64,000 bases of DNA, from positions 96,001 through 160,000 of IMG/VR virus record IMGVR_UViG_3300014205_000175. One strand, written 5' to 3'. Positions 3,900-39,623 of this stretch are shown piece by piece. Each line of letters opens with the position of its first letter. The first letter of the stretch is position 1. The translations under genes were made by a program, and so were the position numbers. The notes beneath the pieces were generated by a model. That model was not told where the DNA came from, searched no databases, and was given only the letters and a program-made list of their open reading frames with translations. The DNA comes from a virus (lineage: Duplodnaviria > Caudoviricetes).

Positions 3900-3906
3900 C
3901 CTGCTA

Positions 3907-3942
3907 CTCTCACCTGCCTTCCATAGCGGAGGCAGGTGAGAG
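3907..3942. terminator. bidirectional terminator hairpin between convergent genes
   Basis: CTCTCACCTGCC/GGCAGGTGAGAG inverted repeat. Confidence 0.75.
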
Positions 3943-3956
3943 GGTAATCTATTTTT

Positions 3957-19934: not shown

Positions 19935-21767
19935 ATGGCTATCACCAGCAACGTCAACATGGGCACGACCAACCAACAAAGCGCCAAGCAATCTTCCAGT
20001 GGTAATGCTCCCCGTGTCGGGTTCATCGCTGGTTCGATGTTCGGTGCTCCCATCGGTCGTGGCATCGGCTCGGAATACCTCAACAAGATCTCGGAGAATC
20101 TCGGCGAGATCTATAAGACCGCCAGTGCGGAGTTTCAGATCGATCTGATCGTGCTCGATAAGGCTAACGAGCTCTCGCTCGCCTTCTCAGCGATCGCGGT
20201 CTGCACCCGCACCAACAACGTCAATGTCGTGGGTGTGCATGTGCTGCTCGTCGAAGGCACGGGCGAAGCGCTCAAATCGGCCTACGAGAGCTTTAACAAC
20301 CAACAAGTCGAGATCACCCGCGTCACCTCCGACGCGTTCGACCAAGTGCTCGTCAACCTCGTCAACGAGCGAGTGGGCAAAGCGTTCCCGAATACGCAGA
20401 TCCTGATCGTCGATGGCTGCGTAGTGCCCGAAGAGTTCCAGCCGGACAACAAGCTGCATATGCGCATGCTCGCGCAAAACGCAGCCATGGCTGGTGGTAC
20501 TGAAGTCGATCTGCGTGCACCGGGCTTCTCGGATATCAACATTTCGGAAGATGGTCGTGGTACCAACCTGATCGTCGAGATCGGCTTCGAGCATAAGCAA
20601 CTCGATGACGCAGTGGGTATGCCGATGCGCTCGGACGTGATGATCCAGTTCCGCAGCCATCGTCCGGGTCAAGGAGCGAACCAGTCGGTCAACTCCAACG
20701 ACCGCGATATGAGCATCTCGGAGCTCTCCGGTTTCATCGACATGCTGTATGCGCCGGTGCAACCGCAGGTCAACAATCCGTGGGCACCGCAGATGCCGGG
20801 GGTGACGCAGAAGTTCGCGTCACGTTTCGTTATCACCAACCTGGCTACGACGATTGGCTACACGCCGGGCATGGTGCTGCTGTCGCTCGCAAGTGCACTG
20901 ACGCTCAACAACGACGGCAACTGGATTCAGAGCTTCCGTCCAATGGGTGCTGCAGGTGGGGCGAAGAACATCGATATCTATGATGTGGGTGCGCTGAATA
21001 TCGAGGGTAACCTCGAAAATAGCCCGACGGGTTTCGGTCAAGCACCGGACACCAAGTCGCGGGACTTCTCGCTGGAAGATCTCGGGACGTTCGTTAGCAG
21101 CCTTGTGCGTCCGGGCATCATGATCAGTATCGATGTACCTGACTGCGGCCCGCAGACCTGGTACACCAGCGTGTTCCGTGATGGTTCCAATGGTTCGCAA
21201 GCAGCGGTCGATCGCATCTATGACGCAGCCATGCAGCTGACCAATGGCAACTTCAGCAAGCACTTCGCACCAGGCATCCCGATGTTCGAAGACCAGTTCA
21301 ACCGCGTGCATCTGGGTTACTGGACGGATCAGCATGGCGCCCGCCGTGACATCCGCGACATCGATTATCTGGCAGCCGCCAACCTGATGGGCCGCAATAG
21401 CCCTGAGTATCTGCGCGACTGGAGCGATACGTTCCTGCGTGTGCAGTATCCGCTGCCGATGCGTCTGGCAGGACGCAAGAAGATGATCGAGAACCTGACG
21501 AACATGACTGCTGTGTTCAAGGGTTTTGCGACACGTGTGACGTTCAGCGCGCCGTTCCTGATGGCGCTCGCCCGTGCTTGCACTGAAGCTGGTCTGATGC
21601 CGCAGGTTAAAACGCCGCTCTCCGCACTGGACTTCAACACCCAGCGTGGCGTGGCAGGCTTCGTCAACACCGCACTGATGGCTCCGGGACACAACTTCGG
21701 CGTCACCGGTTTCGGTAACTACAACCCGGCCGCTTACGGTAACCCCAACATGTACCACCGTTGGTAA
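19935..21767 (+). CDS. chmA: chimallin (phage nucleus shell protein, ChmA/PhuN)
   Basis: 610 aa, immediately upstream of nvRNAP beta' N-subunit as for phiKZ gp54/gp55; flexible N- and C-tails; C-ending codon bias of a highly expressed gene; strong RBS and terminator. Confidence 0.8.
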   Translation: MAITSNVNMGTTNQQSAKQSSSGNAPRVGFIAGSMFGAPIGRGIGSEYLNKISENLGEIYKTASAEFQIDLIVLDKANELSLAFSAIAVCTRTNNVNVVGVHVLLVEGTGEALKSAYESFNNQQVEITRVTSDAFDQVLVNLVNERVGKAFPNTQILIVDGCVVPEEFQPDNKLHMRMLAQNAAMAGGTEVDLRAPGFSDINISEDGRGTNLIVEIGFEHKQLDDAVGMPMRSDVMIQFRSHRPGQGANQSVNSNDRDMSISELSGFIDMLYAPVQPQVNNPWAPQMPGVTQKFASRFVITNLATTIGYTPGMVLLSLASALTLNNDGNWIQSFRPMGAAGGAKNIDIYDVGALNIEGNLENSPTGFGQAPDTKSRDFSLEDLGTFVSSLVRPGIMISIDVPDCGPQTWYTSVFRDGSNGSQAAVDRIYDAAMQLTNGNFSKHFAPGIPMFEDQFNRVHLGYWTDQHGARRDIRDIDYLAAANLMGRNSPEYLRDWSDTFLRVQYPLPMRLAGRKKMIENLTNMTAVFKGFATRVTFSAPFLMALARACTEAGLMPQVKTPLSALDFNTQRGVAGFVNTALMAPGHNFGVTGFGNYNPAAYGNPNMYHRW

Positions 21768-21789: not shown

Positions 21790-21827
21790 CATCCACCCGG
21801 CCCTCATAGCCGGGTGGATGTTTTTTT
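21790..21827 (+). terminator. intrinsic terminator after chimallin
   Basis: CATCCACCCGGC/GCCGGGTGGATG stem plus T7. Confidence 0.85.
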
Positions 21828-21898
21828 GTTTCGCTGGTGTAAAACATCCACCCGACACATATCTGCTGGGTTTAGAACGAGCCAAGGAGCGACACCAT

Positions 21899-24145
21899 AT
21901 GCCCATATATCAACAGTTGGTGAATTTCACTGAGATGTTCCATCAGCTACGGGAACCACCGATCATTATCAACGATCTGCCTAATTCTACCGAGGAGGAG
22001 CGTGACTACATCACGCAGCTCATCACTACCCATTACAACAGCGACATGTTGTCGATTCTGCCTTCGTGTCGCTGTGGTAAAACCAAAGGCGAGTATGAGA
22101 TTGGGTCATTGTGCGCATACTGCAAGACCCCAGTTAAGTCACATATCTCGGAGGATATCGAACCACTCGTATGGTTCCGTCGTCCGATCGGTGTGGCGCC
22201 GCTGATCAACCCACATATCTACATCATGCTGCGCAATCGGTTTCGTAGGTCAGGTTTTGAAGTACTAGACTGGCTCACTGACACCACCTTCAGCACGAAC
22301 AGCAAACAACCTGCGGTACTCAAAACTATCCTCAACGCAGGCGTGCAACGCGGTTACAACAATTTCATAAACAACTTCGATTTCATCATGGGTGTGATGT
22401 TTTCGATCAAAGACTATAAGTTGAAAAAGGGTAAACGCGATTATCTCAGAGAACTCATCGCTCTTAACCGCGGGCAGCTATTCTCGGATTATATCCCGCT
22501 ACCGAATAAATCGCTGCTGGTGATCGAGAACAACAACCTCGGACGCTATGCGGATAACTCGATGGTGATGGCGATCGATGTGATACGCATGATCACTTCG
22601 ATCGACCGACGCTTTTCCGAACACAATGTGATCCTGCGCGAGAACCGTACCGCCAAAGCGATCACACGACTGGGAGACTTCTATGAGGCGTTCGTATCGA
22701 AGAACATGTCACCTAAGCCGGGCTTGTTCCGTAAGCACATCTTCGGTAGCCGTTCGCATTTCTCGTTTCGAGCAGTTATCACCAGTCTAACTGACCGCCA
22801 TGCGTACGACGAGATCCATGTGCCGTGGGGGATCGGGGTGACGGTGCTGCGTGACCACCTGCTCGCTAAGATGATGCGTATGGGCTATGCGCTCAATGAT
22901 GCGATAGGTATGCTACATGGTCATGTACATAACTATAACGAGATGCTCGATCAGCTTTTAAAGGAGATCATCGCTGAGAGTCCGGATTCTAGTTTAATCG
23001 CAATTTTGCAACGGAATGAAAAGCAGTAACTGTTGTAATATCTAATACGATACTGCGACTGGTTTACTGGGTTCCCTTCAGCAGAAATGCTGTCGACAAA
23101 ACTTCGTGAACTGCTGGAACACCCTGAAGGCTGCGCCACCACAAGCACCCCGAAAGGAGGTGTTGACGGTTTGACAACGGCGCGGATGAAGCACTGTGAA
23201 GTGCGGAAAGGGGCAACCGTAGGCTCTAAGAGCCTCTTTAGCAGCCAAGCTCCTACAGCTCAATAGCCACGGAGAAGGTTCAACGGCCATCGAAAGCACT
23301 GTCACCGACAGGAAGCAAGTAGAGTAGGACTCCTAGCGGGGTCCGAAGTGCGAAGCACCCGACCGAGTGACGTCGAGGGTGAAGATATGGTCTGCTCCTG
23401 TATGAACAGTACAGGCGGGTGTCTCAGCACACCGGGATGATGTAGCGACTCATCTGGACAGTAAGCCAAGTTTATTGCAAGGCTCGGCACAACGCGTCAG
23501 AATCACGAAGATCAAAACCGACCCTACCGATAACACGATTTCAATGCCTATTGAAATCGTACGCGCCCCCAATGCTGATCAACTTTCAGGTCCGGCTGTG
23601 CAGTAATGCATAGTTGTAATCTCCTTAATTGCTGGAACACCCTTAAGGCTGCGCCACCACTGCGAGTCGAAAGACAAAGCCATGGTTCGATAACGGCGCG
23701 GATGATCCGTACGTAAATGCGGTGAAAGGGGCAACCGTAGGCTCTAAGAGCCTCTGTAGCAGCCGATCTCCTAAGGCCTTAGGGCTATGGAGCGGGTTCA
23801 ACGACTAGCCCTTTAGCAAGGCGTAGGACTCCAAGCGGGGTTCGAAACAGGAGACATCCTTAACGGGATGAAGATATAGTCTGCCCCCGTATGAAAGTAC
23901 GGGCGGGTGTCTGAGCACACCGGGACGAGACAGTAGTATAAGCGACTCGTCTGGACAATGGGTTTGATGGGGACGCTTTGAACGTGATCTTAGCGTTAGA
24001 CAAGAAAATGGGGGATTTGATGCAGCCACTGGAGCCGCACTACAACGTGTTCGAAGCTAACCGTCCGCGGGCGATCTCGAACAACGTCGGATTACCCAAA
24101 CCGGTAGTCGCGACGATTGCGCACTGGTTGTCCAAGGGAGCGTAG
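21899..24145 (+). CDS. nvRNAP beta' N-terminal subunit (phiKZ gp55-like), spliced from exons 21899-23017, 23466-23579 and 23963-24145; 471 aa
   Basis: Zn finger CRCG...CAYC; FRKHIFGSR...RAVI; joined exons read LQRN|PSL...APNAD|FDGDALN, restoring the catalytic NADFDGD motif. Confidence 0.92.
23018..23465 (+). mobile_element. group I intron 1 (448 nt, no endonuclease ORF)
   Basis: 5' exon ends in U, intron ends in G; IGS GTTCC (23071-23075) pairs with exon GGAAT; P element TGCTGGAACACCCT; R GTTCAACGGCCA (23278-23289); S AAGATATGGTCT (23382-23393). Confidence 0.9.
23580..23962 (+). mobile_element. group I intron 2 (383 nt, no ORF), inside NAD|FDGD
   Basis: U|...G| boundaries restore the frame; R GTTCAACGACTA (23796-23807); S AAGATATAGTCT (23871-23882). 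Confidence 0.92.
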
Positions 24146-24169
24146 TAATACCGGGTGTGCCCATGGTAA

Positions 24170-24184
24170 CATATATAGTACATG
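24170..24184 (+). promoter_or_regulatory. putative early promoter
   Basis: CATATATAGTACATG. Confidence 0.7.
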
Positions 24185-24211
24185 AAGCACACCCGTTGAA
24201 AAGGAGAAAAC

Positions 24212-24835
24212 ATGGTTCAGGTTATTCATGGAGGATCTGACGCTTTCGATATGCTGTTGTATCCGGAACAATCTCCGCTGACCTACCAGTATTTGCAGGA
24301 CAAGATGTCACGGTTTAGTGAGACCCTGACTCAGGCAGGCAGTCGATTCATCGAAGGTTCACGGCAGCTTTTCGAACAGGTACAGAACTCCGATCTCATC
24401 CGGCGCACCAAGGCTGCGATTCGTTCGGCTAAGGCGTATTTTCACCCTAACATGATTCGACCGCTGGAGACGCTCGAAGAGTTGCAGTCGGCTACCTTGG
24501 TGATGCAGCGTTGGGTGATGGCACAACCCGACATACGACGGCTCTATCACCGGCAGTTGGTAGATGGTTATAATGAGACCTACGTCGACATGCATCCGGG
24601 TCAGGTGGGCGTAGAGCACTACGACTATCGTCGTGTCATGAGTGGTGTCGGTGTTGATACGGAAGATGGCGAAGAGTGGCGCGCGACGGTTTATTCTGAT
24701 GATCTCGTCGAAGGTGATCGGGAGCTGGATTTCGGTGAGAAAGTAGATGTGTTGCGTACGTGGGAGATTGTGGCCATGTATGCTAAAGCACGTCGGGAAG
24801 ACCCCACTAATATTTACGGTGGTGATATGGGCTGA
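24212..24835 (+). CDS. conserved phiKZ-like hypothetical protein
   Basis: AAGGAG RBS; in the core block after the nvRNAP subunit. Confidence 0.65.
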   Translation: MVQVIHGGSDAFDMLLYPEQSPLTYQYLQDKMSRFSETLTQAGSRFIEGSRQLFEQVQNSDLIRRTKAAIRSAKAYFHPNMIRPLETLEELQSATLVMQRWVMAQPDIRRLYHRQLVDGYNETYVDMHPGQVGVEHYDYRRVMSGVGVDTEDGEEWRATVYSDDLVEGDRELDFGEKVDVLRTWEIVAMYAKARREDPTNIYGGDMG

Positions 24836-24968
24836 TGGCTATGGAGTCTCTGGTGCAATGCCAGAGACTCCATGCCTGCCGGTAACTAATTTTTTAGTCG
24901 ATAGTGGTATGTGATAATTTCCTATGAGACGGCCATCTTCTGGTAAATTAGTTTTTTAGGGGGGATGT

Positions 24969-25394
24969 ATGACTATCGTGGTACCGGCTTTATCGGAAGA
25001 TGGTTGGGTGGATTATCCTGCCAAACAGGCCGATTACATCTTTGGCCATTTCTTTTTATCCGATTATTCACAGACTTACCTGTATAAAAATCAAGTCAGT
25101 TCATTTGCACAGGTGATGCAAGAACATCAAGGCGACGTATCTAAAATTGCCCGACAGCTCGAAAGTACGTTGCGTATATATTTTTTACGCTACTTTTCCA
25201 AAGTAGAAGTCGAGTGTGATGCGATCCAAGACCCGGACAACCCTAACAAGTTTATCGTGCGGATATATCTAACCTACACCGGCACCGATGGCATCGAGCA
25301 CAACTTGGGTAAGATGGTCAATGTTCTCAACAGTAAAATCGAATCGGTAATCGCTCTTAGCAACTACGGTACCAACGTACCTAAAGACATTTAA
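24969..25394 (+). CDS. conserved hypothetical protein
   Basis: 141-aa ORF with G-rich RBS. Confidence 0.6.
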   Translation: MTIVVPALSEDGWVDYPAKQADYIFGHFFLSDYSQTYLYKNQVSSFAQVMQEHQGDVSKIARQLESTLRIYFLRYFSKVEVECDAIQDPDNPNKFIVRIYLTYTGTDGIEHNLGKMVNVLNSKIESVIALSNYGTNVPKDI

Positions 25395-25411
25395 ACATAA
25401 AAGGACAAGTC

Positions 25412-26014
25412 ATGAACGCCACCACCAAAGATCTCATTTCCTCAACCCAGCAGCAGTTGCGTGAGCAGGTAGTGCGGGACTCTGAAAATGCGCTAGGAGT
25501 CATCTTTCCGGCACTAGTAGAACAGGTTAATACGGTCGCTGCGAAACTGCCTGAGCATATTTTCGTACAGTATTTTCTACCGTATTTTTCTGGTATTTTG
25601 GATCTGTCGTCGCGACCGCAGATTATGGCTGAATGGATTTCAATCGCCGGTTCACCGATGGCTGAAGTCGCTGTCATTAACACCACCGGTCAAACACTCT
25701 TTTATGTACCCGGTATTTTCGATACGTCATTCATCAACGTCAATCGCAAAAATCGATCGATGTCATTTCCGAGTATTGCTGACCAAACCAATCTTATCTC
25801 CAGCAATCTGCCGGCACTGGGTGAGCGATTTTTGCACGACGCACTGAATAGCAAATTCCACGATATCGCCTCTGGTCCGATTGCTGCTCATGATCACCAG
25901 CAGCGCTGGCTAGAGATTTTTGCTCGCTACGGCGTCGCAGCACCAGCGCTCAATGCCGCGGCGCCTGGTGTGCAGTATGCGGCACCTGTGTCTGACGATG
26001 AAATCTATGATTAA
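25412..26014 (+). CDS. conserved hypothetical protein
   Basis: AAGGA RBS, operonic. Confidence 0.6.
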   Translation: MNATTKDLISSTQQQLREQVVRDSENALGVIFPALVEQVNTVAAKLPEHIFVQYFLPYFSGILDLSSRPQIMAEWISIAGSPMAEVAVINTTGQTLFYVPGIFDTSFINVNRKNRSMSFPSIADQTNLISSNLPALGERFLHDALNSKFHDIASGPIAAHDHQQRWLEIFARYGVAAPALNAAAPGVQYAAPVSDDEIYD

Positions 26015-26017
26015 AAC

Positions 26018-27157
26018 ATGAATCGGCCTACCGTCAGCTATGCGGTACTCTCCGATGTCCATCTCGGGCATCGGAGGAATCCGTCTACAGCCATCATCGA
26101 AAATCTCAAGAAAGTACTGGGTCAACTTACCAGCCAGCGTTTAGATGTATTGTTTATCGCAGGTGATTTGTTTGATCGATTGCTTGACAACTCGATGCCG
26201 GATAAACGCGACATCAACCTATGGATTTACTGGTTGTTAAAGTACTGTCATCTTCATCACGTGAAATTGAGGGTTTTAGAGGGCACTCCTAGTCACGATT
26301 GGAAGCAATCCACCAACATCGACATTATTCGGCAGATCTCAGGACTGGAGCTCGATTATGCATATGTACCGGCATTACACATCGAGCATCTCAGTGACTT
26401 GGGTTTATATGTGTTGTATGTGCCTGATGAATGGAACGAAACGACCACTGAAACTTTTCAACAGGTTCAGTCGCTGATGGCTGAAGCCGGCATCAGTCAA
26501 GTTGACATCGCCATCATGCACGGGCAGTTTAACTATCAGATCCGTCAAGCCCCTGCGAGCATTCCGCGACATCAGGAGGATGATTATCTTGGCATCGTCA
26601 GGCATTACATTCACATAGGCCATGTGCATACTCACACGGTCAATGAACGCATTATTGCACAAGGCTCGTTCGATCGCCTATCGCACGGCGAAGAAGAGCC
26701 TAAAGGTCTAGTGTGGGCTGAGGTACGATCAGACGGTACGCGACAATATCACTTCATTGAAAATACTGAAGCGATGATCTTCAAAACTGTGCAGTTAAAA
26801 GGTGAAGACATCCAGGATATCATGGCGTATCTTGATAAACGCATTCTTAAATATCGTCCTGGTAGTTTCATCAGACTCAAAGGACGCAAAGATCATCCGG
26901 GCTTTAGCTACTACGAGGAGCTCAAGAAACGTTATGCACTATACAGTCTTACCAAACAAGGCGAAGAGTTAGAAACAACTCAGGTAGTAGATATCGGTGT
27001 GCTGAATGACTACCAGAGCTTTTCGATCACTACTGACAATGTACGAGGACTACTCAGCGATAACATCCGTGCCAGATATGAATTTCACGACCAGCACTGG
27101 ACCTATATGCATGGGGTGCTCGACGAAATATTGGGAGTAAAAGATGGATCTTCTTAA
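26018..27157 (+). CDS. SbcD/Mre11-like metallophosphoesterase nuclease
   Basis: SDVHLG, AGDLFD, GTPSHD, MHG, GHVH motifs. Confidence 0.88.
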   Translation: MNRPTVSYAVLSDVHLGHRRNPSTAIIENLKKVLGQLTSQRLDVLFIAGDLFDRLLDNSMPDKRDINLWIYWLLKYCHLHHVKLRVLEGTPSHDWKQSTNIDIIRQISGLELDYAYVPALHIEHLSDLGLYVLYVPDEWNETTTETFQQVQSLMAEAGISQVDIAIMHGQFNYQIRQAPASIPRHQEDDYLGIVRHYIHIGHVHTHTVNERIIAQGSFDRLSHGEEEPKGLVWAEVRSDGTRQYHFIENTEAMIFKTVQLKGEDIQDIMAYLDKRILKYRPGSFIRLKGRKDHPGFSYYEELKKRYALYSLTKQGEELETTQVVDIGVLNDYQSFSITTDNVRGLLSDNIRARYEFHDQHWTYMHGVLDEILGVKDGSS

Positions 27158-28007
27158 TCAGCGCTCTATCTCAGCGTTGCCGGTTAGTATCGGCAGTTCT
27201 TTGGCATTCGAAACAGTACTGATGCCCAAGCTACCACCGTACGATCCAGCACGCGTTGCACCCGAGCGTGTTAATATCATGAATTATGATGAGATATGGA
27301 TCAACCTCCAAACTCTTTACCGTAACTTGGTAGGTGCGCTCCCAACCCAGCTCAAACCAATGGTGGCACAGGCAGACATCAAAGGGGCGCTCTATCAGGA
27401 GATGGAGATACTGCAAAGCGCCATCGCCGAAGAGTCTCAGCAGCAGTGCCGTGCTAGGTTTTACTATCCGACGTACAGCCGACTCATTAATAACCCGTTA
27501 CTGCCCAAGCAGGTTCGTTTCCGCGTACCTACCACCGATAACCAAAAATCCTACCACGAGCTACTTGTGCACGTGTATCAGCAGATGGTGCGCGAGCAGC
27601 AGTATGATCTACAGGTGATAGGCGGGCGTGTTCGGCCACAGAAACCTACCAAGGCACTGATCTTTACCCACACGCCTTATGATCTACTGAGCTATCCAGC
27701 ATTTAAAAAGCTAGAACTACTGGAGAGTCATACTGGTCACATTAAACCTCGCTCGCAGTGGTACACCAAGTACTACCCGGTAGGGGAGCACAAAATCGAC
27801 ATGTTGCCGTTTACCAGACCTCTACTACTGATCTTTGGCGACCATGCTCTCATCAAACCCATGGAGTACAACTATAGAAAACTAATCATCGATATCGCTA
27901 TCAAGAGGAATTGGACACCATTGACTACTGATAGCAAGATTTTGTACGACGTGGATTTGGATATCAAAGAACGTTACCTCGTCGAGCTTTTCCGAAAACT
28001 GGCTTGA
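27144..28007 (+). CDS. conserved phiKZ-like protein (gp66-like by position)
   Basis: Overlaps the SbcD-like gene; LLESHTG motif; function not evident. Confidence 0.55.
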   Translation: MDLLNQRSISALPVSIGSSLAFETVLMPKLPPYDPARVAPERVNIMNYDEIWINLQTLYRNLVGALPTQLKPMVAQADIKGALYQEMEILQSAIAEESQQQCRARFYYPTYSRLINNPLLPKQVRFRVPTTDNQKSYHELLVHVYQQMVREQQYDLQVIGGRVRPQKPTKALIFTHTPYDLLSYPAFKKLELLESHTGHIKPRSQWYTKYYPVGEHKIDMLPFTRPLLLIFGDHALIKPMEYNYRKLIIDIAIKRNWTPLTTDSKILYDVDLDIKERYLVELFRKLA

Positions 28008-28069
28008 CAGGGTAAAAAATATGCTCACGCAAAATCCAGTGAGCCCACCGAAAAACAAGGAGTTTCATA

Positions 28070-28699
28070 ATGAGTGCAGATCTTCGCGGACGGATTGTAG
28101 ATTTTGAAAAACTGATTCTCTTCACTGACTCGACTGAACCGGGTAAGCGTGCCCGTATGCAGTTCGGCGGACGTGATGGGAATTTTCGCATTACTGTTTT
28201 CACCGGCACTGGCAGTACTGCTAAAGAGGGGGTGATCCAATGTCCGCTCGACCCGATGAGCTTCGATAGCTTTCTCACGCTGTTCGAGAGCATCATCCGT
28301 GGTGAGTCGGGTAGCAAGAGCAAGATCACGGCCAAAACCCTCGTCTATGAGAATGACAAACCGACCGACCAGATGAAAGTCATGTCGGAACTGTGGTTCG
28401 GTAAGAACGCCGAAGGGATCGTCTGGATCGCGCTATCGGCACCGAGCTACCCGAAACTCACGTTCGAGTTCCGTGGCAGTCGCTTTGCCGAGTTCTATCA
28501 AAAAGACGGCACCCCGCTCTCCGATCAAGATCTCTCCAAGCTCACGGCAGGATCTTTCGTACGGGTGTTGCGTGACACCATGCCAGCTTACATTATGGCA
28601 CTGAGCGCCCAACCTCGCGTCGCTGGTGGTGCAGCAGGGGTGCCTAGTAAGCCCGCTGCTAAGCTTAACAACGATACCTTCGAAGATCTTTCGTACTGA
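28070..28699 (+). CDS. probable nucleic-acid-binding nucleus-associated protein (gp67/ChmC-like by position)
   Basis: Position just before the gp68-like gene; beta-rich body with flexible acidic C-tail (NNDTFEDLSY). Confidence 0.5.
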   Translation: MSADLRGRIVDFEKLILFTDSTEPGKRARMQFGGRDGNFRITVFTGTGSTAKEGVIQCPLDPMSFDSFLTLFESIIRGESGSKSKITAKTLVYENDKPTDQMKVMSELWFGKNAEGIVWIALSAPSYPKLTFEFRGSRFAEFYQKDGTPLSDQDLSKLTAGSFVRVLRDTMPAYIMALSAQPRVAGGAAGVPSKPAAKLNNDTFEDLSY

Positions 28700-28788
28700 C
28701 ATCACGTAGAACTACTCATCCTCAGGGCCACTGAGGATGAGTGCCGTTTTAAGCCTTAAGTTGCACGGATTGGAAAATAATAGAGTGC

Positions 28789-28803
28789 CATATATAGTAC
28801 GTG
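28789..28803 (+). promoter_or_regulatory. putative early promoter
   Basis: CATATATAGTACGTG. Confidence 0.65.
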
Positions 28804-28831
28804 AGCACCGCCAATAGCAAGGAGCACTATA

Positions 28832-30370
28832 GTGAAAATCGAAGTTCTCAACATCCAGCACATGACGGCTCCTCTAGAATTAAAGATTAGCCATCTGGAA
28901 GAGTCTGTATGTTTCAACGTTGCGTACTACGGTCGAAACGTTTTCAACAAAGACTACGATTTGTTCGAGCAGCTTAACAGCTACTGGTCAGGCCTGTCGG
29001 AGGAGCTCCAGCTATCGATCTATAACTGCTACCGCAGCATCAAAGCGACCTTCGAATCTTTCGGTAGTCGTGAAGCGATGATGTCCGATCTGAACAAATG
29101 GTCAGTGCAGCTGCTTAACTACCACGACTTCACACATCTGCGTAACTGGATCTTCTTTCGTTCCAACATCGCAGTGCCGTCGCGCTTTGAGGAGACTTTC
29201 GTTTATGACGTTGATCGACAAAACACCCCCGACCAGACGTATCTGAAGGGTGACTACATTGATCTCGTAACGATGACTCTGGTGTTTCGCACGATGATGC
29301 CGGTGTGGGGTGAGTATATCTCGATGATGCGTCAAGAGCATGGCACGCGTTTTAAAGAGTATGAAGCCTTTAACCTCATCTACGGTGCAGAGATCTGTCG
29401 TTCGCATGCGCACGAGAAGCTGATGATCTATATCGATCGCACGATTGCAGCTGATCGATACAACCAGACAGTGATCATCGATGGTATCTCTTCGGAGGAT
29501 TTCCCGACGTGGGTGTTAGCTCGCACGATCGTGCGACGACTCTTGATCTCTGACATCCGTGGCTTGGACCCCAAAGCCAATATCGTGACATTTACCCACA
29601 AGTACGTGTCCGAAGCAGCGCGCCCTGACGATAGTAGCGGTGAACAAAAGGTCAAAAATAAGACTACCGATGACTCGGGGATGGATCAGGAGAACAAACT
29701 CTCGTCATTCGAGCGTTACCGCGTCAGGCACTCGATAGCGATCGGAGAGTTGGTGGAGATCGAGCACTCGCTCTCCGATCTACGTTCGATCGCTTATCGC
29801 TTGTCGAGCAACATGAATGATGCGCTATTTTATCGCAGCATGGAAACCTGTGAACATCTGACCAAGCATCGTATTTCTGAGCCGCAGATCACACTGTTGC
29901 GCTGGGTATTTAAACCTGTCGTGAGTCCGCGAGGCTTGATGTACATCGATAACCACCGCATCATCAAATGTCTCGGAGTACTGCAAGCGGTACTGTGGGC
30001 ACGTGGTCACAAATATCTCTCACTGCTCTCGACGGCCTATGCTAATATCAGCGATAATAGCATGCTGGTATCAGGCAGTGATAGTAAAGCACGTATTCCC
30101 AAAGAGCTGATGGAAGAGCTCGATCAAACCTATCCTTATCAACGCATGTTTGGAGGCAAGAAGACCGGCTATAAGTCGCAAAACTTAGCCATTGAAGCAG
30201 TCGATAAGATCGTAACCGATCTGTCTGCAAATACATGGACGGCTACTGCTGACGATGGGTTGATTTCCGAAGTCCTAAACACTACTGCTCGGAAGCTACC
30301 CATCCCTTATGAAATCAAAGTGACATTAGCACAATTCGTTCTCGAAATTGGCCGTCGCACCTGGATCTAG
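28832..30370 (+). CDS. nvRNAP fifth (promoter-specificity) subunit, phiKZ gp68-like
   Basis: 512 aa, helical, position in the core block; inferred mainly from synteny and size. Confidence 0.65.
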   Translation: MKIEVLNIQHMTAPLELKISHLEESVCFNVAYYGRNVFNKDYDLFEQLNSYWSGLSEELQLSIYNCYRSIKATFESFGSREAMMSDLNKWSVQLLNYHDFTHLRNWIFFRSNIAVPSRFEETFVYDVDRQNTPDQTYLKGDYIDLVTMTLVFRTMMPVWGEYISMMRQEHGTRFKEYEAFNLIYGAEICRSHAHEKLMIYIDRTIAADRYNQTVIIDGISSEDFPTWVLARTIVRRLLISDIRGLDPKANIVTFTHKYVSEAARPDDSSGEQKVKNKTTDDSGMDQENKLSSFERYRVRHSIAIGELVEIEHSLSDLRSIAYRLSSNMNDALFYRSMETCEHLTKHRISEPQITLLRWVFKPVVSPRGLMYIDNHRIIKCLGVLQAVLWARGHKYLSLLSTAYANISDNSMLVSGSDSKARIPKELMEELDQTYPYQRMFGGKKTGYKSQNLAIEAVDKIVTDLSANTWTATADDGLISEVLNTTARKLPIPYEIKVTLAQFVLEIGRRTWI

Positions 30371-30382
30371 GAGTTTACCTAT

Positions 30383-31874
30383 CATGTCATACAACTATGC
30401 ATCGAATGCCCTTAACAACCTGCAGATCAACCGCGTGCTGATGGTGGAGACGGGACGTTACAATCCTGTCTATAGTCGTCCGTACGAGACCAACATCTCT
30501 GGTGCGGTGATGAATAATCTTGTTGAGCGTATCGTTAATACCGGTGGCAAAAAAGTCACTGGTAGTTTGCTCAACGGGATCTCGGCAGAGATCGCAGCCC
30601 CTTCGGCAATCCCGCATCACGCTATTAATATCAGTGGCGGATGGGATGAGCGACGTATTCGCTTTATCATCGAGGTACAGTTCACTCTCTCGACTGGTGC
30701 TACCGGGTTTTACTACATCCAAGGTTATACCTCGCACGCTGGGGTGACACCAAATGGTGCTGTTGATCCGAATATGGAGTTTGTTATCAACTCTTATACA
30801 TCGGTCAATCGTATCCAGACGCTTACTCCGACAGGCTTGCAGTACATCGATCGTATCGAAGATACGGCACAGGTGTTCACTGGTATCGATGGGACATTGC
30901 AATCGCATTCAACCATGACCTACGGTCTGCGTCCTGAGGATGTCTTCAAAGGCATTCAGTCGAGTTTCTTGCAGGGTGGGGCTACGGTAGCTGGTTTTGG
31001 TGATGCGATCGATTTCCGTCCTAACCTCGGTTCCAAACCCAATCACAGTAAGCGAGCGAATAACATCCCGTCGCAGTACGTCGGCGAGATCGTTAACTCG
31101 TATCTGATCGGTCAGGACTTGTCGAGCTTTGGTCAGGGGCAAGAGGATATCATGTCCCGTACGCTGCATGTGACCATGGAACCGTCAGTAGCACAGAACT
31201 TCTTCTTCAATGTGCTCTCGCAAGTGCGCCATCAGCTCACCAACCGTTTCACATGGCGCGACCTGCAGCAGATCGATCCTAGTGTCGATGCCAAATCACA
31301 ATACATCACTCTCGGCTCGGCAACTAAGATGAGTCCCACGCCTGTGGCTGACCCGAGCATGACTGCTTACTGGTCGGGTTCGGATCGCATCACGCAAATG
31401 GCGAGCTTGCTCTCGGCAGCAGTACCGGGGTTGATGATGGCGTTCATGATCCAAAAAGTGCACTTTCGCTCTACCAATCATGACGCCACCGGGATGGTCA
31501 ACACCGTAGTTATCGATGTGAAGTCGATGGTTAATCTGGACATGCGGCGTAACGTTGAACTCTTTATCCACCAGCTCGAAACGGAGATCATTCGTGACAT
31601 CACAATGAATGGCCAGGATAGTTACATGCTCGATATGAGCTGCGATATCTTTGGTGACACGTGGATCAATCTTTCACTCGGAGCAGAACCTATGACGCAG
31701 TTTGTCGTGCCGAGTTTCTGCGATTCGTTGTATAGCCCTGTGGTTACCAACAACAGTGACCACTATAACCATATCGCTTTCGATTTCAATCAGCTCGTCA
31801 CTAACGTAGCCGAAGAAGTCAACAGTTATGGCTCACGCTACGAGAGTTCGATTCGGGTAGCCGCAGGCATCTAA
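30383..31874 (+). CDS. probable nuclear import factor (PicA/Imp1, phiKZ gp69-like)
   Basis: Start MSYNY with AGGAG RBS; directly follows the gp68-like gene; synteny-based. Confidence 0.55.
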
Positions 31875-31923
31875 ACATAATACCCTCCGTCATGTGACGG
31901 AGGGAGTTCAACAGGAGATTGCA

Positions 31924-33294
31924 ATGAGCAATAAGCTTTTGACATTGTATAAAGATTTGCTGAAATTTGCAGGTTGTGAAACTGACAAAGAGAACTACAT
32001 CTACTTTTCGGTCAACGATAAACGTTCTCCGTTCCTGGTCGAAGGTGTGAATGCGGTGCTGCCCACCCAAGAACATCTGAAATCGGCTGTAGGTAAAGTG
32101 ATCTTCCATCCGCTACGGGAAAACATTACTCGTGGTGAGAGCGAGGTACTGAAGAAGTATCGCAATGCTTTGACGATGCGTCTGAACGTTGTTGGTCACT
32201 CGGTAGCACAATACCTGTTGAATCTGGCTTCATCGCCGGATTTGCAGAAACACCTCACGAGCGATCAGATCGATCTCATCACTACGATGGGTGACGTTGA
32301 TACTAAGGCGGTCGAGAACTTCAACAAAGTAATGATGCACGCCCTTAAAGAAGACCCACACCGAGCGCTTGTCAGCATGTATTTGCGCGCCGGTGCTACA
32401 GTCTTTGGTAAGAAACATGCGCGTGTATGCATCGTGAATTTCCCGATTTATGAAGCACTGGTTAGTGACGAAGAAAAAGTCTTCGGCGTCAAGCTGCGTG
32501 TCAAGGATCGCGATATTTTCACGCGTCTGCATAAGTTCATGTTCCCCGGAATCGAACATCAGGATAGTTACAGCTTTGGTTCGAATAGCCGTAACGCACC
32601 GTTCATGGAAGCACTGCTTGGTTCGGGAAAACTGATTGCTGCGAGATTGAATGATTTACTGAAAACCTACCGAGATTTTATTGATGACGCTGATGCGCTG
32701 GAGCTCAATTGTGACTGGGTAGATGATCTCGATAACCTTGACGAACTGAGTGACGAGATCAAGCGTATTCCGACTCAAGCGGGTAATGAGGGTTCGGTGC
32801 GGGTAGAAGAACGTCTCAAGGAGCAGCCTATCGAGCACGTAGTTAAGATTGAGCCCCCGACACCCCAGGTGGCTCAGCCGGCACTACAGCCGCAGGTGAT
32901 GTCCCAGCAGCAATGTACGTCGATGCATGTACCGGCAGCACAGCCACCAAGCAGTAGCGGACATTTGACAGTGAAAGAGCTGTTGGCGAAAAATCCTGCT
33001 ACTGCTTACATGCCCAACCCTTTAGCGCGAGCAGCTATGATGCAACAACCGATGTATCAGCAGCAACATCAGCGTGTGCCAGGATGGGCACAAGGAGGAC
33101 AGATGATGCCGCAGCAACCGATGTATCCCCAGCAGCAGCCCATGTACCAGCAGCCCATGTACCAGCAACCGATGTATCCCCAACAGCAGCCCATATATCC
33201 GCAACAGATGCAGCAGCAGCCGATGTATCCGCAACAGATGCAACAACCCATGGTGCCGCAGCAAATGCCTGGTTATCGTCCTCCGTGGCAGTAA
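31924..33294 (+). CDS. conserved core protein (gp70-like) with a Q/P/M/Y low-complexity C-terminus
   Basis: Start MSNKLL with AGGAG RBS; C-terminal (QQPMY)n repeats. Confidence 0.65.
   Translation: MSNKLLTLYKDLLKFAGCETDKENYIYFSVNDKRSPFLVEGVNAVLPTQEHLKSAVGKVIFHPLRENITRGESEVLKKYRNALTMRLNVVGHSVAQYLLNLASSPDLQKHLTSDQIDLITTMGDVDTKAVENFNKVMMHALKEDPHRALVSMYLRAGATVFGKKHARVCIVNFPIYEALVSDEEKVFGVKLRVKDRDIFTRLHKFMFPGIEHQDSYSFGSNSRNAPFMEALLGSGKLIAARLNDLLKTYRDFIDDADALELNCDWVDDLDNLDELSDEIKRIPTQAGNEGSVRVEERLKEQPIEHVVKIEPPTPQVAQPALQPQVMSQQQCTSMHVPAAQPPSSSGHLTVKELLAKNPATAYMPNPLARAAMMQQPMYQQQHQRVPGWAQGGQMMPQQPMYPQQQPMYQQPMYQQPMYPQQQPIYPQQMQQQPMYPQQMQQPMVPQQMPGYRPPWQ
33040..33270 (+). repeat. coding tandem repeat encoding QQPMY/QQPMYP units
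   Basis: Repeated cagcaaccgatgtatc / cagcagcccatgtacc units. Confidence 0.85.
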
Positions 33295-33356
33295 TAGCCC
33301 GGATGTGAGAACAGACCGGCTCCTGATCACGGAGCCGGTCTGTTCATTTTTTGTTT

Positions 33357-33692
33357 TCAGAAATGTTTTGCTGCACTGTTGTAAAGACTACTTAGCATTT
33401 CGATTTTGCTCAGATCTGGTACCCGAACTTCAGTATCTTCACCCAGATAGTCACCAGCATGTCGATAACCGTTATGCACGAGGATATAGTAATGGTAATG
33501 TTTGGGGATGTTGAGGTGATCGAGTAGTCCGTAGAAATCGCCTTGATACTTGTAGGCGATCGCTGCAGTTACCACTAACACTTTCTCACCAGCTTGATTC
33601 AGATGTGGTTTAAAACTATCGTGCCATACGCGATAATCGGCCGTGTAGAAAGAACCCGCTCCATATTTATCTTCTAAACTGTTGATCTGCAT
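33357..33692 (-). CDS. small conserved protein, possibly baseplate/LysM-like
   Basis: AAGGA RBS; AYKYQGDFYGLL...LVHNGY...VRVPD pattern. Confidence 0.55.
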   Translation of the reverse strand: MQINSLEDKYGAGSFYTADYRVWHDSFKPHLNQAGEKVLVVTAAIAYKYQGDFYGLLDHLNIPKHYHYYILVHNGYRHAGDYLGEDTEVRVPDLSKIEMLSSLYNSAAKHF

Positions 33693-33764
33693 GTCTGATG
33701 TCCTTGTAGTTACACATTTAATAAGTGGTTAGCAAGCCATAACATTTCACAAGGGGTAGCACTA

Positions 33765-36311
33765 ATGACTTATCCAAACGAACTACACTCTGAACTCATG
33801 GGAGTACATGCGCTCAATACCTATGCGCAACACAATTCTTCACCGCGTTCAGTAATGTTCTCGTCACACTTCAGTCAGAAACTCACGATCAAAGGCGGTA
33901 CTGAAAAACGTATTCAAACCGGTGCAGAAGTTGAATTTGCCAAACACACCTATGCCGTACGTATGCCAGTCGATGCCAAGATTATTCAGGTTATCGATTT
34001 GTATCCTACCAATATCGCCGAAGATTCGATTCCTGAAAACCCCGAATCGTATATCGTCTATGAGGATGTGCAAACGCACGAAATCGGTTGTGTAATAGCG
34101 CCTAAGTTTATCTCCCATCATCAGTACTTCGGTTATAAACTCAACCCGGTAAGTAACGCAGTTCCGGGTTCAGTCATCGCCAAAGACACGGTGTTGATGG
34201 ACTCTCCAGCAGTATCGGAGAACGGCGGCTATAAGTATGGCATCGAGCTTAACATGGCGTTGATGACCCAACCGGCAGTCGCTGAAGACGCGATCCTGAT
34301 ATCCGAGGATGTATTAGATCGTTTGTCGTTCAACGTCTATGAACGGCGTACGGTAGAATTCGGTAAGAGCAACTACCCACTGAACCTCTACGGCGACATG
34401 GAGAAATACAAACCCTTCCCTGAAATCGGTGAGTACGTGCGTGATGATGGGGTACTGATGATTCTGCGCGACATGGACACCGATCTGGCACCGGTGGATA
34501 TGAGCGTCTATGACGTCAGAGAGCCTGATTATACTTTCGATAAATCAGTGTATGTCAGAGGTCCGAAAGGCAAAGTGGTATCAATCCGTTCTTACCACAA
34601 CGAGCAACCGACATCTCCTACCCCTACTGGCATGATGGAGTATATGGATAAATACCCGCGAGCAATGCGGCGTTTTTATACACGGGTACTAGAAGTGGAG
34701 AATCGTCTTCGCTACGAGCGTCGCAAAAAGTTCGGTGACGATTATCTGCCGATGAAGCCAGAGTTTCATCAGCTGGTTATTGATGCGATGATGTATCTAG
34801 ACCACAAACCCATTGACAAGAAGGCTCCTCCGCTGACGCTAGAGCATCGTAAAACACCGCTGGACGATTATCGTATCGAGTTCGTTATCGAATACACGAT
34901 CCGTCCGACAGTGGGTTTCAAAATGACAGATATGCATGGTGGTTTAATTGTAGTTCAGTTGGTGTATTGATTGAACTGCATGGCCTTGCCCGGTAGAGAT
35001 GCCGGAACAAAATCTTCCTTAACTGTCTGGAACACCCTTAAGGCTGCGCCACCACATGCATCCTGAAAAGAGATGTAGACGGTCTGACAACGGCGCGGAT
35101 GACCTGTACGTAGTATGTACAGTGAAAGGGGCAACCAGCAGCCAAGCTCCTACAGCTTAACAGCCATGGAGAAGGTTCAACGACTAACCGCTTACCACGG
35201 TGTAGGGCTCCGAGCGGAGTTCGAAATGGGAAGCACCCGACCGAGTGATGTCGAGGGTGAAGATATAGTCTGCCCCCGTATGAAAGTATGGGCGGGTGTC
35301 TGAGCACACCGGGATGAGACAGTAGTATGAGCGACTCGTCTGGACAATGGGAAAGGAGTTATTTGCAAGATCGAAAAACCGGAGAATATGCCGGTAGATG
35401 CTGATGGCAATCGTGCCGATATCGTCATGGCACCTGAATCCACAGTAGCACGAATGAACTTAGGTCGCGTCTATGAGATGTATGTCAGTGGGGCGTGTCG
35501 TGATACGGCTAAAACAGTACGTAAAATGCTCGCCGTAGAAGGCACACGTGAAAATCGTGTGCTGCGTTCACTCGAAGCCGTACAGCAACAAGACCCGCAG
35601 CGCATCGAGCAGACCTACAACTATCTGCTCGGCTTTTATCAACTCATTTCGGAGAAACAGCACGCTTTTTATGCCGCACTCGGGTTACCGCAACGGCTAG
35701 AACATTTAGCTAGCGTGGTGGTCGATGGGATCTATATCTACTGTCCGACCGATAACCAGAAGGAAACTCCTGATATCGTCAAGGACTTGGAGAAGGATTA
35801 CCCGCAGATCTACGGTCCGGTCGCTTATGTCGGTAACTCAGGACAACGTGTTACGACTCAGGCCAAAGTTCGCATCGCGCCGTTGTACATGATGTTGCTA
35901 GAGAAAATCGCCGATGACTGGTCGGCTGTATCTTCGGCGCGACTACAGCACTTTGGGGTATTGGCTCCGATGACTAAGTCGGAAAAGTACCTGCGCCCAT
36001 GGCATAACTCTCCGGTACGTAACATCGGTGAGACCGAAGCACGTATCTACTCGGGCTACTGCGGCCGGGAAGCGATCGCTGAGATGATGGATCGTAGCAA
36101 CAATCCTCTCGCTCATAAGCAGATCGTGCGTAACATCTTAGCTGCTGAGAAACCCGGTAACATCGATGAAGTTATCGATCGCAACATCATACCGTTAGGA
36201 GGCTCGAAACCGTTGCAACTCTTTAACCATTTCTCCATCTGCCAAGGCTGGCGTCCGGTCTATACGCCCGAGTCGCAAATCGACAACACTTTACCACCTA
36301 TCGCGCAGTAA
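33765..36311 (+). CDS. nvRNAP beta subunit (phiKZ gp71-73-like), spliced from exons 33765-34943 and 35352-36311; 712 aa
   Basis: EDAILIS; joined GFKMTDMHGG|KGVICKI (cf. GDKxxxRHGNKG); ADIVMAPESTVARMNLG; YMMLLEK; NIGETE. Confidence 0.92.
34944..35351 (+). mobile_element. group I intron 3 (408 nt, no ORF)
   Basis: U|...G| boundaries restore the frame; Q GGGCAACCAGCAGCC; R GTTCAACGACTA (35175-35186); S AAGATATAGTCT (35260-35271); same 3' end CTGGACAATGGG as intron 2. Confidence 0.92.
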
Positions 36312-37718: not shown

Positions 37719-39623
37719 ATGAGTATTCTGTGCGATAAAGAGATCATCTCGTTGTGCGAGGGACCGAACCCGATGATCTCCCCGTTCAAATCTCATCAGG
37801 TACGCTACCGGACCTCGAATGATCCGTCGCGTAACCGTGAACGCATCGTCGATGGTGTGACCGTGTGTGATGAGAAGATCGTCTCGTACGGTACGTCTAG
37901 TTTCGGCTACGATGTACGCTGTGGTAACAAGTTCAAGATCTTCACCAACATCAATTCCACCATCGTCGACCCGAAGAATTTCGATGAGAAATCATTCGTC
38001 GAATACGAAGGCGATTGCTGCATCATCCCGCCCAATTCATTCGCTCTGGCTAATACGGTCGAGTATTTTCGCATTCCGCGCGATATCCTGACGATCTGTG
38101 TCGGTAAATCCACGTACGCTAGGTGCTTTACTGGCGATACCAAGGTAGCGCTGGTGGATGGAACCTCGGCTAGTTTCGAGGATTTGGTCGAAAGGGCGAA
38201 AACAGGTGAGCGCTTCTGGGGCTATAGTGTTGACGATGACGCTAACATCGTAGTAGCAGAACTTACCCAGCCTCGTAAGATCGGTCACGAAAGAATCATC
38301 GAAGTAGAACTGGATAATGGTGAAGTTATTAAGTGTACGCCTGATCATAAGTTCATACTTCTCGACGGCAGTTACGTTGAAGCCCAGCATCTTCAGATTA
38401 ACCAAAGCCTGATGCCTCTCTACCGAGTTGAAACACGCGGTTATGAGGCCGTCGTTCAGCCGACTACGTTTAGTTTCATTAGTACCCATCATTTATCAGA
38501 TGCGTGGAACCTTAAAAACAATGTTTATGAGGCAGGTGAAAACGAACACCGGCACCACGCAAATCATAATCGTCGGGATAACCGCCCTACCAACATCGTA
38601 CGAAAAAACGCATCCGAGCATCTTCGAGAGCATAATGCTGAAAGAATGAATGATGCTGATTATAGGAGTAGGCTCAGCGAGCTGCGTAAAGAAGCTTTCC
38701 GAAAACACGACCAAGATCCTAGTTGGCACCAAGGTTTTGTACAAAGATGCAAGGCGGCTGCAGACGCATTTTGGAATTCTGACGAACACTCGGAGACTCG
38801 TCAGAAGGTTTTGTTTGGGCGGAAGAACTATGGCGCCAACATGTCCGCTGAAGAACGCCAAAAGCGGTCCGAAATAATGCGGGTGCTGATGATGGATGTT
38901 GTCAGAAGGAAGGAAAGCGCCGAGAGATTTAATGCACTGTGGGAAGATCCTGAATTCCGTGCAAACAAAGTTAATCAGGCACGTAGTCTGAATCTCCGTA
39001 CCGAAATCACGGAATGTGAGGTAAGGGACGCTCTTGAAAAAGCAGGAACTCTGCGAGGAGCCGCGCGTTTACTGGATTGTGATCGGACGGTGTTCCGTCG
39101 TTTCCGGGATCTTGTCCTGGAGTTCAAAGATAAAATCCAAGCGGCGAGACTTTCAACTGACGACGTTCTGGATGCTCTGAGGAAAACTGGTTCTGTCAGA
39201 AAGGCTGCAAAATATCTTGACATTGGTCGGAGTAAACTTCTGTCATATAAGGAGGCTGTTAGTGCTTATTATGGTAAACCGGTAGCTGAAAATCATAAGG
39301 TGGCAGCGATCCGGGAAGTGTCGGGGACGCATGATGTTTATTGTCTTAGCGTTCCAGAGCACGGGAATTTCGCACTGGAAGCGGGAGTGTTCGTCAAGAA
39401 CTGCGGGATTATCGTAAACGTAACTCCGTTCGAACCCGAGTGGGAAGGTTTCGTGACTCTGGAGTTCTCCAACACCACTCCGCTACCGGCTAAGATCTAC
39501 GCCAACGAAGGCTGTGCGCAGGTATTGTTTTTCCGTGGTGATGTACCGTGCGAAGTCTCGTATCGTGACCGGGCAGGTAAGTACATGAACCAAGTCGCTA
39601 GCCCTGTTATCCCGCGTGTGTGA
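37719..39623 (+). CDS. dcd: dCTP deaminase containing an intein
   Basis: [28 protein letters not shown]|...|[24 protein letters not shown]; 208 aa after splicing. Confidence 0.93.
38124..39401 (+). mobile_element. intein (426 aa) with HNH-type endonuclease and HTH-like repeats
   Basis: CFTGDTKV start, CTPDHKF block B, VYCLSV block F, ends VKN before Cys+1; [15 protein letters not shown]. Confidence 0.9.

Follow-up and report, generated by a model that had tools for sequence, protein, structure and literature searches.

Three related, mosaic group I introns without open reading frames in the RNA polymerase genes of a nucleus-forming jumbo phage

In nucleus-forming jumbo phages (Chimalliviridae), group I introns interrupt genes of both the virion RNA polymerase (vRNAP) and the non-virion RNA polymerase (nvRNAP). 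For phiKZ, the proteins gp56, gp72 and gp179 were predicted to be intron endonucleases as early as 2002, as related in a later paper (Mesyanzhinov 2002, via PMC10914365), and one transcriptome study did not detect splicing of the introns of this phage (PMC10914365). The intron in the vRNAP beta gene gp210 of PhiPA3 carries an active nicking HNH enzyme with a measured competitive effect (Birkholz et al. 2024, PMC11620839). In a different phage family, orf142 of phage Twort is described in later accounts as holding three related group I introns that lack an open reading frame (ORF) and as showing exon skipping (Landthaler and Shub 1999, via PMC11620839 and PMC11878797). Here, we analyse three ORF-less group I introns, denoted I1, I2 and I3, in a 64,000-nucleotide stretch of viral DNA. 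This stretch, referred to as the window, covers bases 96001-160000 of the 202,826-bp IMG/VR virus contig IMGVR_UViG_3300014205_000175, which is estimated to be 75% complete. The introns interrupt the genes of two nvRNAP subunits, and they are probably related, mobile elements in old nvRNAP homing sites that have been shuffled by recombination, with any masking of the sites being a by-product. The exons and introns are given below in window coordinates, with a slash marking the point of interruption.

21818-23017, plus strand: exon 1 of the nvRNAP beta'-N gene (orthologue of phiKZ gp55), matching PHROG 2987 at 1-380 and ending in ...LQRN
23018-23465, plus strand: intron I1, 448 nucleotides (nt), ORF-less group I, at QRN/PSL in the beta' NRxPSLH motif, 32.9 bits against Rfam model RF00028
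23466-23579, plus strand: beta' exon 2, PSLLQGS...APNAD, 114 nt or 38 codons, in frame, placed by colinear alignment
23580-23962, plus strand: intron I2, 383 nt, ORF-less group I, at NAD/FDGD in the catalytic Mg2+ motif, 64.1 bits against RF00028
23963-24145, plus strand: beta' exon 3, FDGDALN... through the stop codon, matching PHROG 2987 at 424-475, placed by colinear alignment
33765-34943, plus strand: exon 1 of the nvRNAP beta gene (orthologue of phiKZ gp71/73), matching PHROG 3295 at 7-407 and ending in ...TDMHGG
34944-35351, plus strand: intron I3, 408 nt, ORF-less group I, at HGG/KG (HGN/KG in E. coli RpoB), 72.9 bits against RF00028
35352-36311, plus strand: beta exon 2, KGVICKI... through the stop codon, matching PHROG 3295 at 416-694

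Joining 21818-23017, 23466-23579 and 23963-24145 yields a beta' protein of 498 amino acids that is colinear with the uninterrupted proteins of phages FLC9, RP12 and RTH11 across QRN/PSL and NAD/FDGD. Likewise, joining 33765-34943 and 35352-36311 yields a beta protein of 712 amino acids, colinear with the same three phages across HGG/KG. Beta exon 1 was aligned to FLC9, RP12 and RTH11 and has tblastn matches in phiKZ and PhiPA3. The beta' gene gives a tblastn match to PHIKZ055 of phiKZ, its closest cultured relative being Burkholderia phage FLC9 at 46% identity. Self-splicing of each intron from the mRNA would restore the respective subunit, and the annotation is in need of correction, in that what has been called as five separate ORFs corresponds to two essential RNAP subunits. 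The three interrupted motifs (sites s1, s2 and s3) we take to be the equivalents of NRAPTLH and NADFDGD in beta' and of HGNKG in beta of E. coli, respectively. A gene for a chimallin-like nuclear shell protein is found at 19935-21767, with the RNAP subunit genes directly after it. On the basis of this gene and the adjoining gp55-type RNAP gene, the source is evidently a jumbo phage of the nucleus-forming type, whose nvRNAP is encoded by the interrupted genes.

The closest counterparts of these introns are found in the same genes of phiKZ-type phages. They share a related ribozyme core with the window introns and lie at the same nucleotide positions at HGG/KG and RN/P(S/T)L, as well as in the same NADFDGD motif. 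In phiKZ, a 1218-nt intron sits exactly at HGG/KG (gp71/gp72 HNH/gp73). In KTN4, one intron occupies the RN/P position of I1 (1244 nt, ORF KTN4_075), and a second is found 6 nt upstream of NAD/FDGD (N/ADFDGD; 1372 nt, ORF KTN4_076). Within KU521356.1 48206-55348, the two KTN4 introns run from 2470 to 3713 and from 3822 to 5193 of that piece, in the gp55 orthologue, and their ORFs are 34% identical. Still, the phiKZ-type introns measure 1.2-1.4 kb and carry HNH ORFs, whereas those of the window are ORF-less and measure 383-448 nt. Moreover, the core similarity between the two groups is low (summed blastn scores of 36-141 bits, as compared to 160-306 bits within the cluster formed by the window introns and a G003 intron introduced below).

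The intron in gene 065 of PhiPA3 resembles I3 in architecture, being an ORF-less group I intron of 450 nt exactly at HGG/KG whose exons join in frame. Conversely, it is present as a single copy and is about 75% identical to I3 over about 146 nt only. It lies at 2211-2660 of the piece HQ630627.1 52795-57927, and GenBank annotates gene 065 as a mere RNAP "fragment". The gp210 intron of the same phage resembles those of the window in being a group I intron in an active-centre motif of a chimallivirus RNAP, and it illustrates the effect of such an endonuclease on an unoccupied site; it differs in residing in the virion RNAP and in its active HNH enzyme, as nothing comparable is encoded in the window introns. 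A fourth point of comparison is G003, a related chimallivirus contig of 164 kb that was retrieved when viral contigs were scanned with a pattern. PhuZ and RNAP subunits are encoded in it, the beta' proteins of G003 and the window share 72% identity, and a 1445-nt intron with a 344-amino-acid HNH ORF lies exactly at NAD/FDGD.

As the same nucleotide positions are occupied in KTN4/phiKZ, PhiPA3 and G003, the three targets appear to be long-established homing sites and not new to this genome. This qualifies the preliminary description of the locus, which had proposed that one ribozyme spread within the genome by re-targeting its guide. There is indeed one family with three targets and a guide for each, but the sites were already in use elsewhere. 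The claim that the family is confined to nvRNAP genes holds for this contig and not beyond it, since members also occur in the vRNAP and PhuZ genes of G003 and, more distantly, in terminase and DNA polymerase genes. Resemblance to the introns of Twort and T4 lies in the number of related small group I introns per genome, with two in one gene around a short exon; these phages belong to another family, and the genes that host the introns are different. Exon skipping over the 114-nt exon of the window is conceivable. Loss of 23466-23579 (38 codons) would preserve the reading frame while deleting the segment from PSL to NAD.

Intron boundaries were set from protein colinearity and not from the ends of the RF00028 matches, which span 34936-35292 (I3), 23570-23903 (I2) and 23045-23415 (I1, E 2.7e-5). 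The outer boundaries given in the preliminary description, 23018 and 35351, proved correct. A U occupies the last exon position before all three introns (23017, 23579 and 34943), each intron terminates in G (23465, 23962 and 35351), and the guide sequences of the three copies align at a G (23071 in I1, 23590 in I2 and 34983 in I3). The guide GTTCC of I1 pairs with GGAAU in the exon. In I3, the guide GCC is located at 34983-34985, with a 12-bp hairpin (34949-34960 pairing with 34969-34980) in the P1 loop. The minimum-energy local fold of 34938-34985 favours an upstream pairing register for I3, which would lose one Gly. An alternative I3 junction at 34945/35350, which would rely on a 10-bp helix containing a U-G pair, was rejected because it places a Leu inside HGG-KG that is present in no homologue; the 12-bp hairpin, being the preferred local fold, also disfavours it.

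The helices of the core covary as originally reported. P3 is formed by CTTCGT/GCGAAG, TCTCCT/AGGAGA and CTTCCT/GGGAAG with compensatory changes, and P7 by GGCCA/TGGTC or GACTA/TAGTC; a third covarying form, GATCA/TGATC, is seen in the site-2 intron of G003. Compensatory pairs amount to 15 out of 97 among the three copies, and a seven-member family alignment reveals compensatory changes in 40 of 77 predicted pairs, including all six of P3. The covariation in P3 and P7, together with these 40 pairs, indicates that the ribozyme folds are under selection. Two hairpins are found between P7 and P3'; hairpins in this place, P7.1 and P7.2, would be expected of subgroup IA2, which is typical of phage introns and includes the td, nrdB and sunY introns of phage T4.

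Across the whole core, the alignment of the three copies has a mean column identity of 77%. Pairwise, 263/372 positions are identical between I1 and I2, 297/393 between I1 and I3, and 279/362 between I2 and I3 (71-77%). The 5' region with P1 and the internal guide sequence, said to be unique to each intron, is the sole part that cannot be aligned. Superimposed on this overall similarity are blocks of near identity, in which the partners change from block to block:

I1 and I2, 3' strand of P5/P4 plus an extra 21-nt hairpin ending in GGCTCTAAGAGCC, not found in I3: 38/39 identical
I1 and I3, P8: 24/25 identical
I1 and I3, P6: 28/31 identical
I1 and I3, P5a/b: 26/33 identical
I2 and I3, J8/7-P9: 56/58 identical
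I2 and I3, 3' tail: 35/36 identical

All blocks other than P5a/b had been quoted before, and each of them is present. With three sequences alone, any site shared by two copies equals a private change in the third, and a test of recombination needs either spatial clustering or an outgroup. The outgroup used here, G003a, is the intron in the virion RNAP beta gene of G003, which shares 79% identity with I1 across 398 nt. Among 42 informative sites in the quartet of I1, I2, I3 and G003a, 24 group I1 with G003a and I2 with I3, 17 group I1 with I3 and I2 with G003a, and a single site supports the third split. These partitions fall into 11 runs along the alignment, as compared to 22.4 +/- 3.0 under permutation (P = 9e-5), and the three window copies by themselves give 48 runs as compared to 59.4 +/- 4.5 (P = 0.008); the P values are approximate, helix sites not being independent. 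The P5a/b hairpin of I2 is identical to that of G003a at 28/31 positions and to those of I1 and I3 at 14-15/33, and I1 matches G003a in P7/P7.1 (31/48) and J8/7-P9 (57/59). Because swaps of multi-nucleotide hairpins are beyond the reach of convergence, the exchange of segments between copies is real, in agreement with the recombination proposed in the preliminary description. Exchange between phages is evident as well, since both I1 and the P5a/b hairpin of I2 have their closest counterpart in a G003 intron that interrupts another gene.

Summed blastn scores were used to compare the likeness of co-resident introns with that of introns which share a site but belong to different phages:

Within the cluster of I1, I2, I3 and G003a: 160-306 bits
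KTN4 site 1 and KTN4 site 2: 141 bits, each being the other's best partner
I2 and G003 site 2 (same site): 126 bits
I3 and PhiPA3 (same site): 96 bits
I1 and KTN4 site 1 (same site): 91 bits
I3 and phiKZ (same site): 50 bits

The closest relative of I1 overall is the G003 vRNAP intron at 306 bits, and two of the G003 introns have genome-specific variants in common in P8, P7 and P9. As introns of the same genome are more alike than introns at the same site elsewhere, the data fit a scenario in which co-resident copies exchange or replace cores. The opposite pattern, namely introns closer to the same-site introns of other phages and devoid of a mosaic signal, is not what we find, as genome-mates score higher and the mosaic is supported. 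This comparative observation, same-genome likeness in excess of same-site likeness with statistically supported segment swaps, is the one point that goes beyond the routine. If general, it would mean that in these phages the evolution of intron cores is uncoupled from that of their sites, with consequences for how nucleus-forming phages fight one another by means of intron endonucleases.

Occupancy of identical sites is sporadic among close relatives, and endonuclease-bearing versions exist at the same sites. Introns are absent from s1 and s3 in G003, and the virion RNAP beta and PhuZ genes of the window genome are uninterrupted where G003 has introns. The group I intron in the PhuZ tubulin gene of G003 follows after about codon 100 and adjoins a 411-amino-acid HNH ORF (G003:C1:53500-58000, approximately 1920-2316, minus strand). 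PhuZ of the window genome matches the N-terminal part of G003 PhuZ, and no group I intron was detected there. The G003 vRNAP beta intron, the one closest to I1, interrupts DDHKRV/NF and lies on the minus strand of G003:C1:82000-90000, from 2571 to about 3230; the gp210 intron of PhiPA3 has its DD/ site 12 nt upstream of this point. The G003 intron begins with a 58-codon ORF that may be an endonuclease remnant; this ORF has no Pfam match and a weak similarity to HNH N-termini (E 0.01-0.08). Neither RF00028 nor an nhmmer family profile retrieved further family copies from the 202-kb contig. A megablast search with both loci against 50,697 phage records returned no near-identical relatives, and among viral contigs no related locus was found with beta' exon 1 and no match with a 27-nt P4-P5 pattern. 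A metagenome scan with a subfamily pattern gave two chance matches only, in GC-rich contigs without an RF00028 match, and these are not introns.

The introns were described as endonuclease-free, and this holds: none of the ORFs inside them has a Pfam match. Searches of the whole contig by tblastn with seven intron HNH proteins of relatives, and with PF01844 and PF01541, retrieved nothing. No free-standing HNH or GIY-YIG gene was found in the contig and no additional intron copy, the two things for which a full-genome search had been suggested. The neighbours of the RNAP genes are conserved in synteny and have no nuclease domains. In cyanophage S-PM2, an ORF-less psbA intron and the free-standing endonuclease F-CphI are said to take part in collaborative homing, reportedly described by Zeng, Bonocora and Shub in 2009. 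The window introns are likewise ORF-less and would presumably protect their sites, but no free-standing endonuclease was found in the contig, and none near the introns as collaborative homing would have it. The sole homing-endonuclease-like signal in the contig is a weak PF13392 (HNH_3) match of 16.3 bits at 38553-38624, inside an intein. This intein (Pfam Intein_splicing, residues 144-561) is carried by a dCTP deaminase-like gene at 37719-39623 on the plus strand, 1.4 kb downstream of the beta gene.

The reading we prefer has a mobile group I intron family circulating among the Chimalliviridae, of which the three introns described here would be ORF-less members, each placed in an invariant active-centre motif of nvRNAP (beta' NRxPSL, beta' NADFDGD and beta HGxKG). 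Endonuclease genes of the kind carried by the introns of relatives may have been lost or may never have been present, as would be expected late in the homing cycle. The mosaic is probably the outcome of homologous recombination, comprising ectopic gene conversion between co-resident copies and exchange with family members of related phages. Recombination would have moved peripheral hairpins and the 3' domain, with compensatory changes keeping the ribozyme helices intact. At least part of the exchange would have taken place within this genome. Occupied sites are presumably not cut by the site-specific HNH endonucleases of relatives, as a by-product of occupancy for which no dedicated system is needed. 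The finding is ordinary mobile-intron biology and involves no new mechanism; it adds a well-resolved case in which RNAP active-centre motifs serve as shared homing sites of the Chimalliviridae, here endonuclease-free.

Several observations count against this assignment. I2 and I3 exceed the RF00028 gathering score of 50 bits and I1 falls below it, yet I1 aligns to both over the whole core. P1 of I3 comprises just 3-4 bp, and the exon repeat GGUGGU permits a second pairing register. With the contig about 75% complete, the remainder of the genome could contain further copies or an endonuclease. Furthermore, sampling is thin, with one close outgroup intron, and exchange in this genome is inseparable from the acquisition of introns that were already mosaic from unsampled donors.

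The last point leads to the alternative that each intron homed separately from a different same-site donor phage and that the mosaic arose in the donor pool, which we regard as unlikely, if worth serious consideration. Other chimalliviruses have introns at all three sites, the intron closest to I1 belongs to another phage (G003 vRNAP, 79% over 398 nt, 306 bits), and the near-identity of the P5a/b hairpins of I2 and G003a (28/31) implies that exchange between phages has happened. Against this, every pair among I1, I2 and I3 has at least one near-identical block in common, which is hard to obtain from three independent donors. I1 and I3 also resemble I2 more closely than the G003 intron at s2 does, and the variants common to two of the G003 introns again follow the genome and not the site.

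It is rather improbable that the introns are kept by selection, be it as an immunity that masks cut sites or as a splicing gate controlling when nvRNAP is produced. HNH-encoding introns do occur at exactly these sites in relatives, the intron endonuclease of PhiPA3 is a proven weapon against phiKZ (PMC11620839), and "molecular on-switch" ideas have been proposed for phage introns (PMC11878797). Preservation of the ribozyme helices by compensatory change would also be in line with such a role, but any intron in an essential gene must keep splicing, selfish or not. Target masking against the endonucleases of relatives is plausible; at the same time, any intron that fills its homing site would bring it about, such resistance being the textbook outcome of homing, and selection for masking is not shown by these sequences. 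Homing immunity as a separate system, as originally suggested, is thus abandoned in favour of this generic effect. The closest relative, G003, manages without introns at s1 and s3, and nothing here supports a splicing gate or a role in timing.

A more elaborate proposal is similarly doubtful. Here, gene conversion in the phage nucleus would homogenise co-resident cores, so that one lineage holds three target sites and is kept for blocking chimallivirus HNH endonucleases, and the two near-identical ribozymes on either side of the 114-nt exon would moreover skip it, to give a beta' isoform without the PSL-to-NAD segment, and hence without the first Asp of NADFDGD, as a possible regulator. Finally, chimallivirus RNAP subunits are naturally split over several genes and ORF callers treat these loci as separate genes, but that the inserts are assembly artefacts or inert insertions leaving split, separately translated subunits is hardly credible, given a 114-nt middle exon without start codon context, breaks inside NADFDGD and HGxKG that are continuous in all homologues, and three matches to the group I model with covariation.

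More distant members of the family, recognised by a common P9 motif, are found in a 118-kb contig of an unrelated phage (IMGVR_UViG_3300045988_133607). It contains eight RF00028 matches, which cluster in the terminase large-subunit and DNA polymerase genes at 38.5-40.2 kb and 107-109 kb, some of them accompanied by HNH ORFs.

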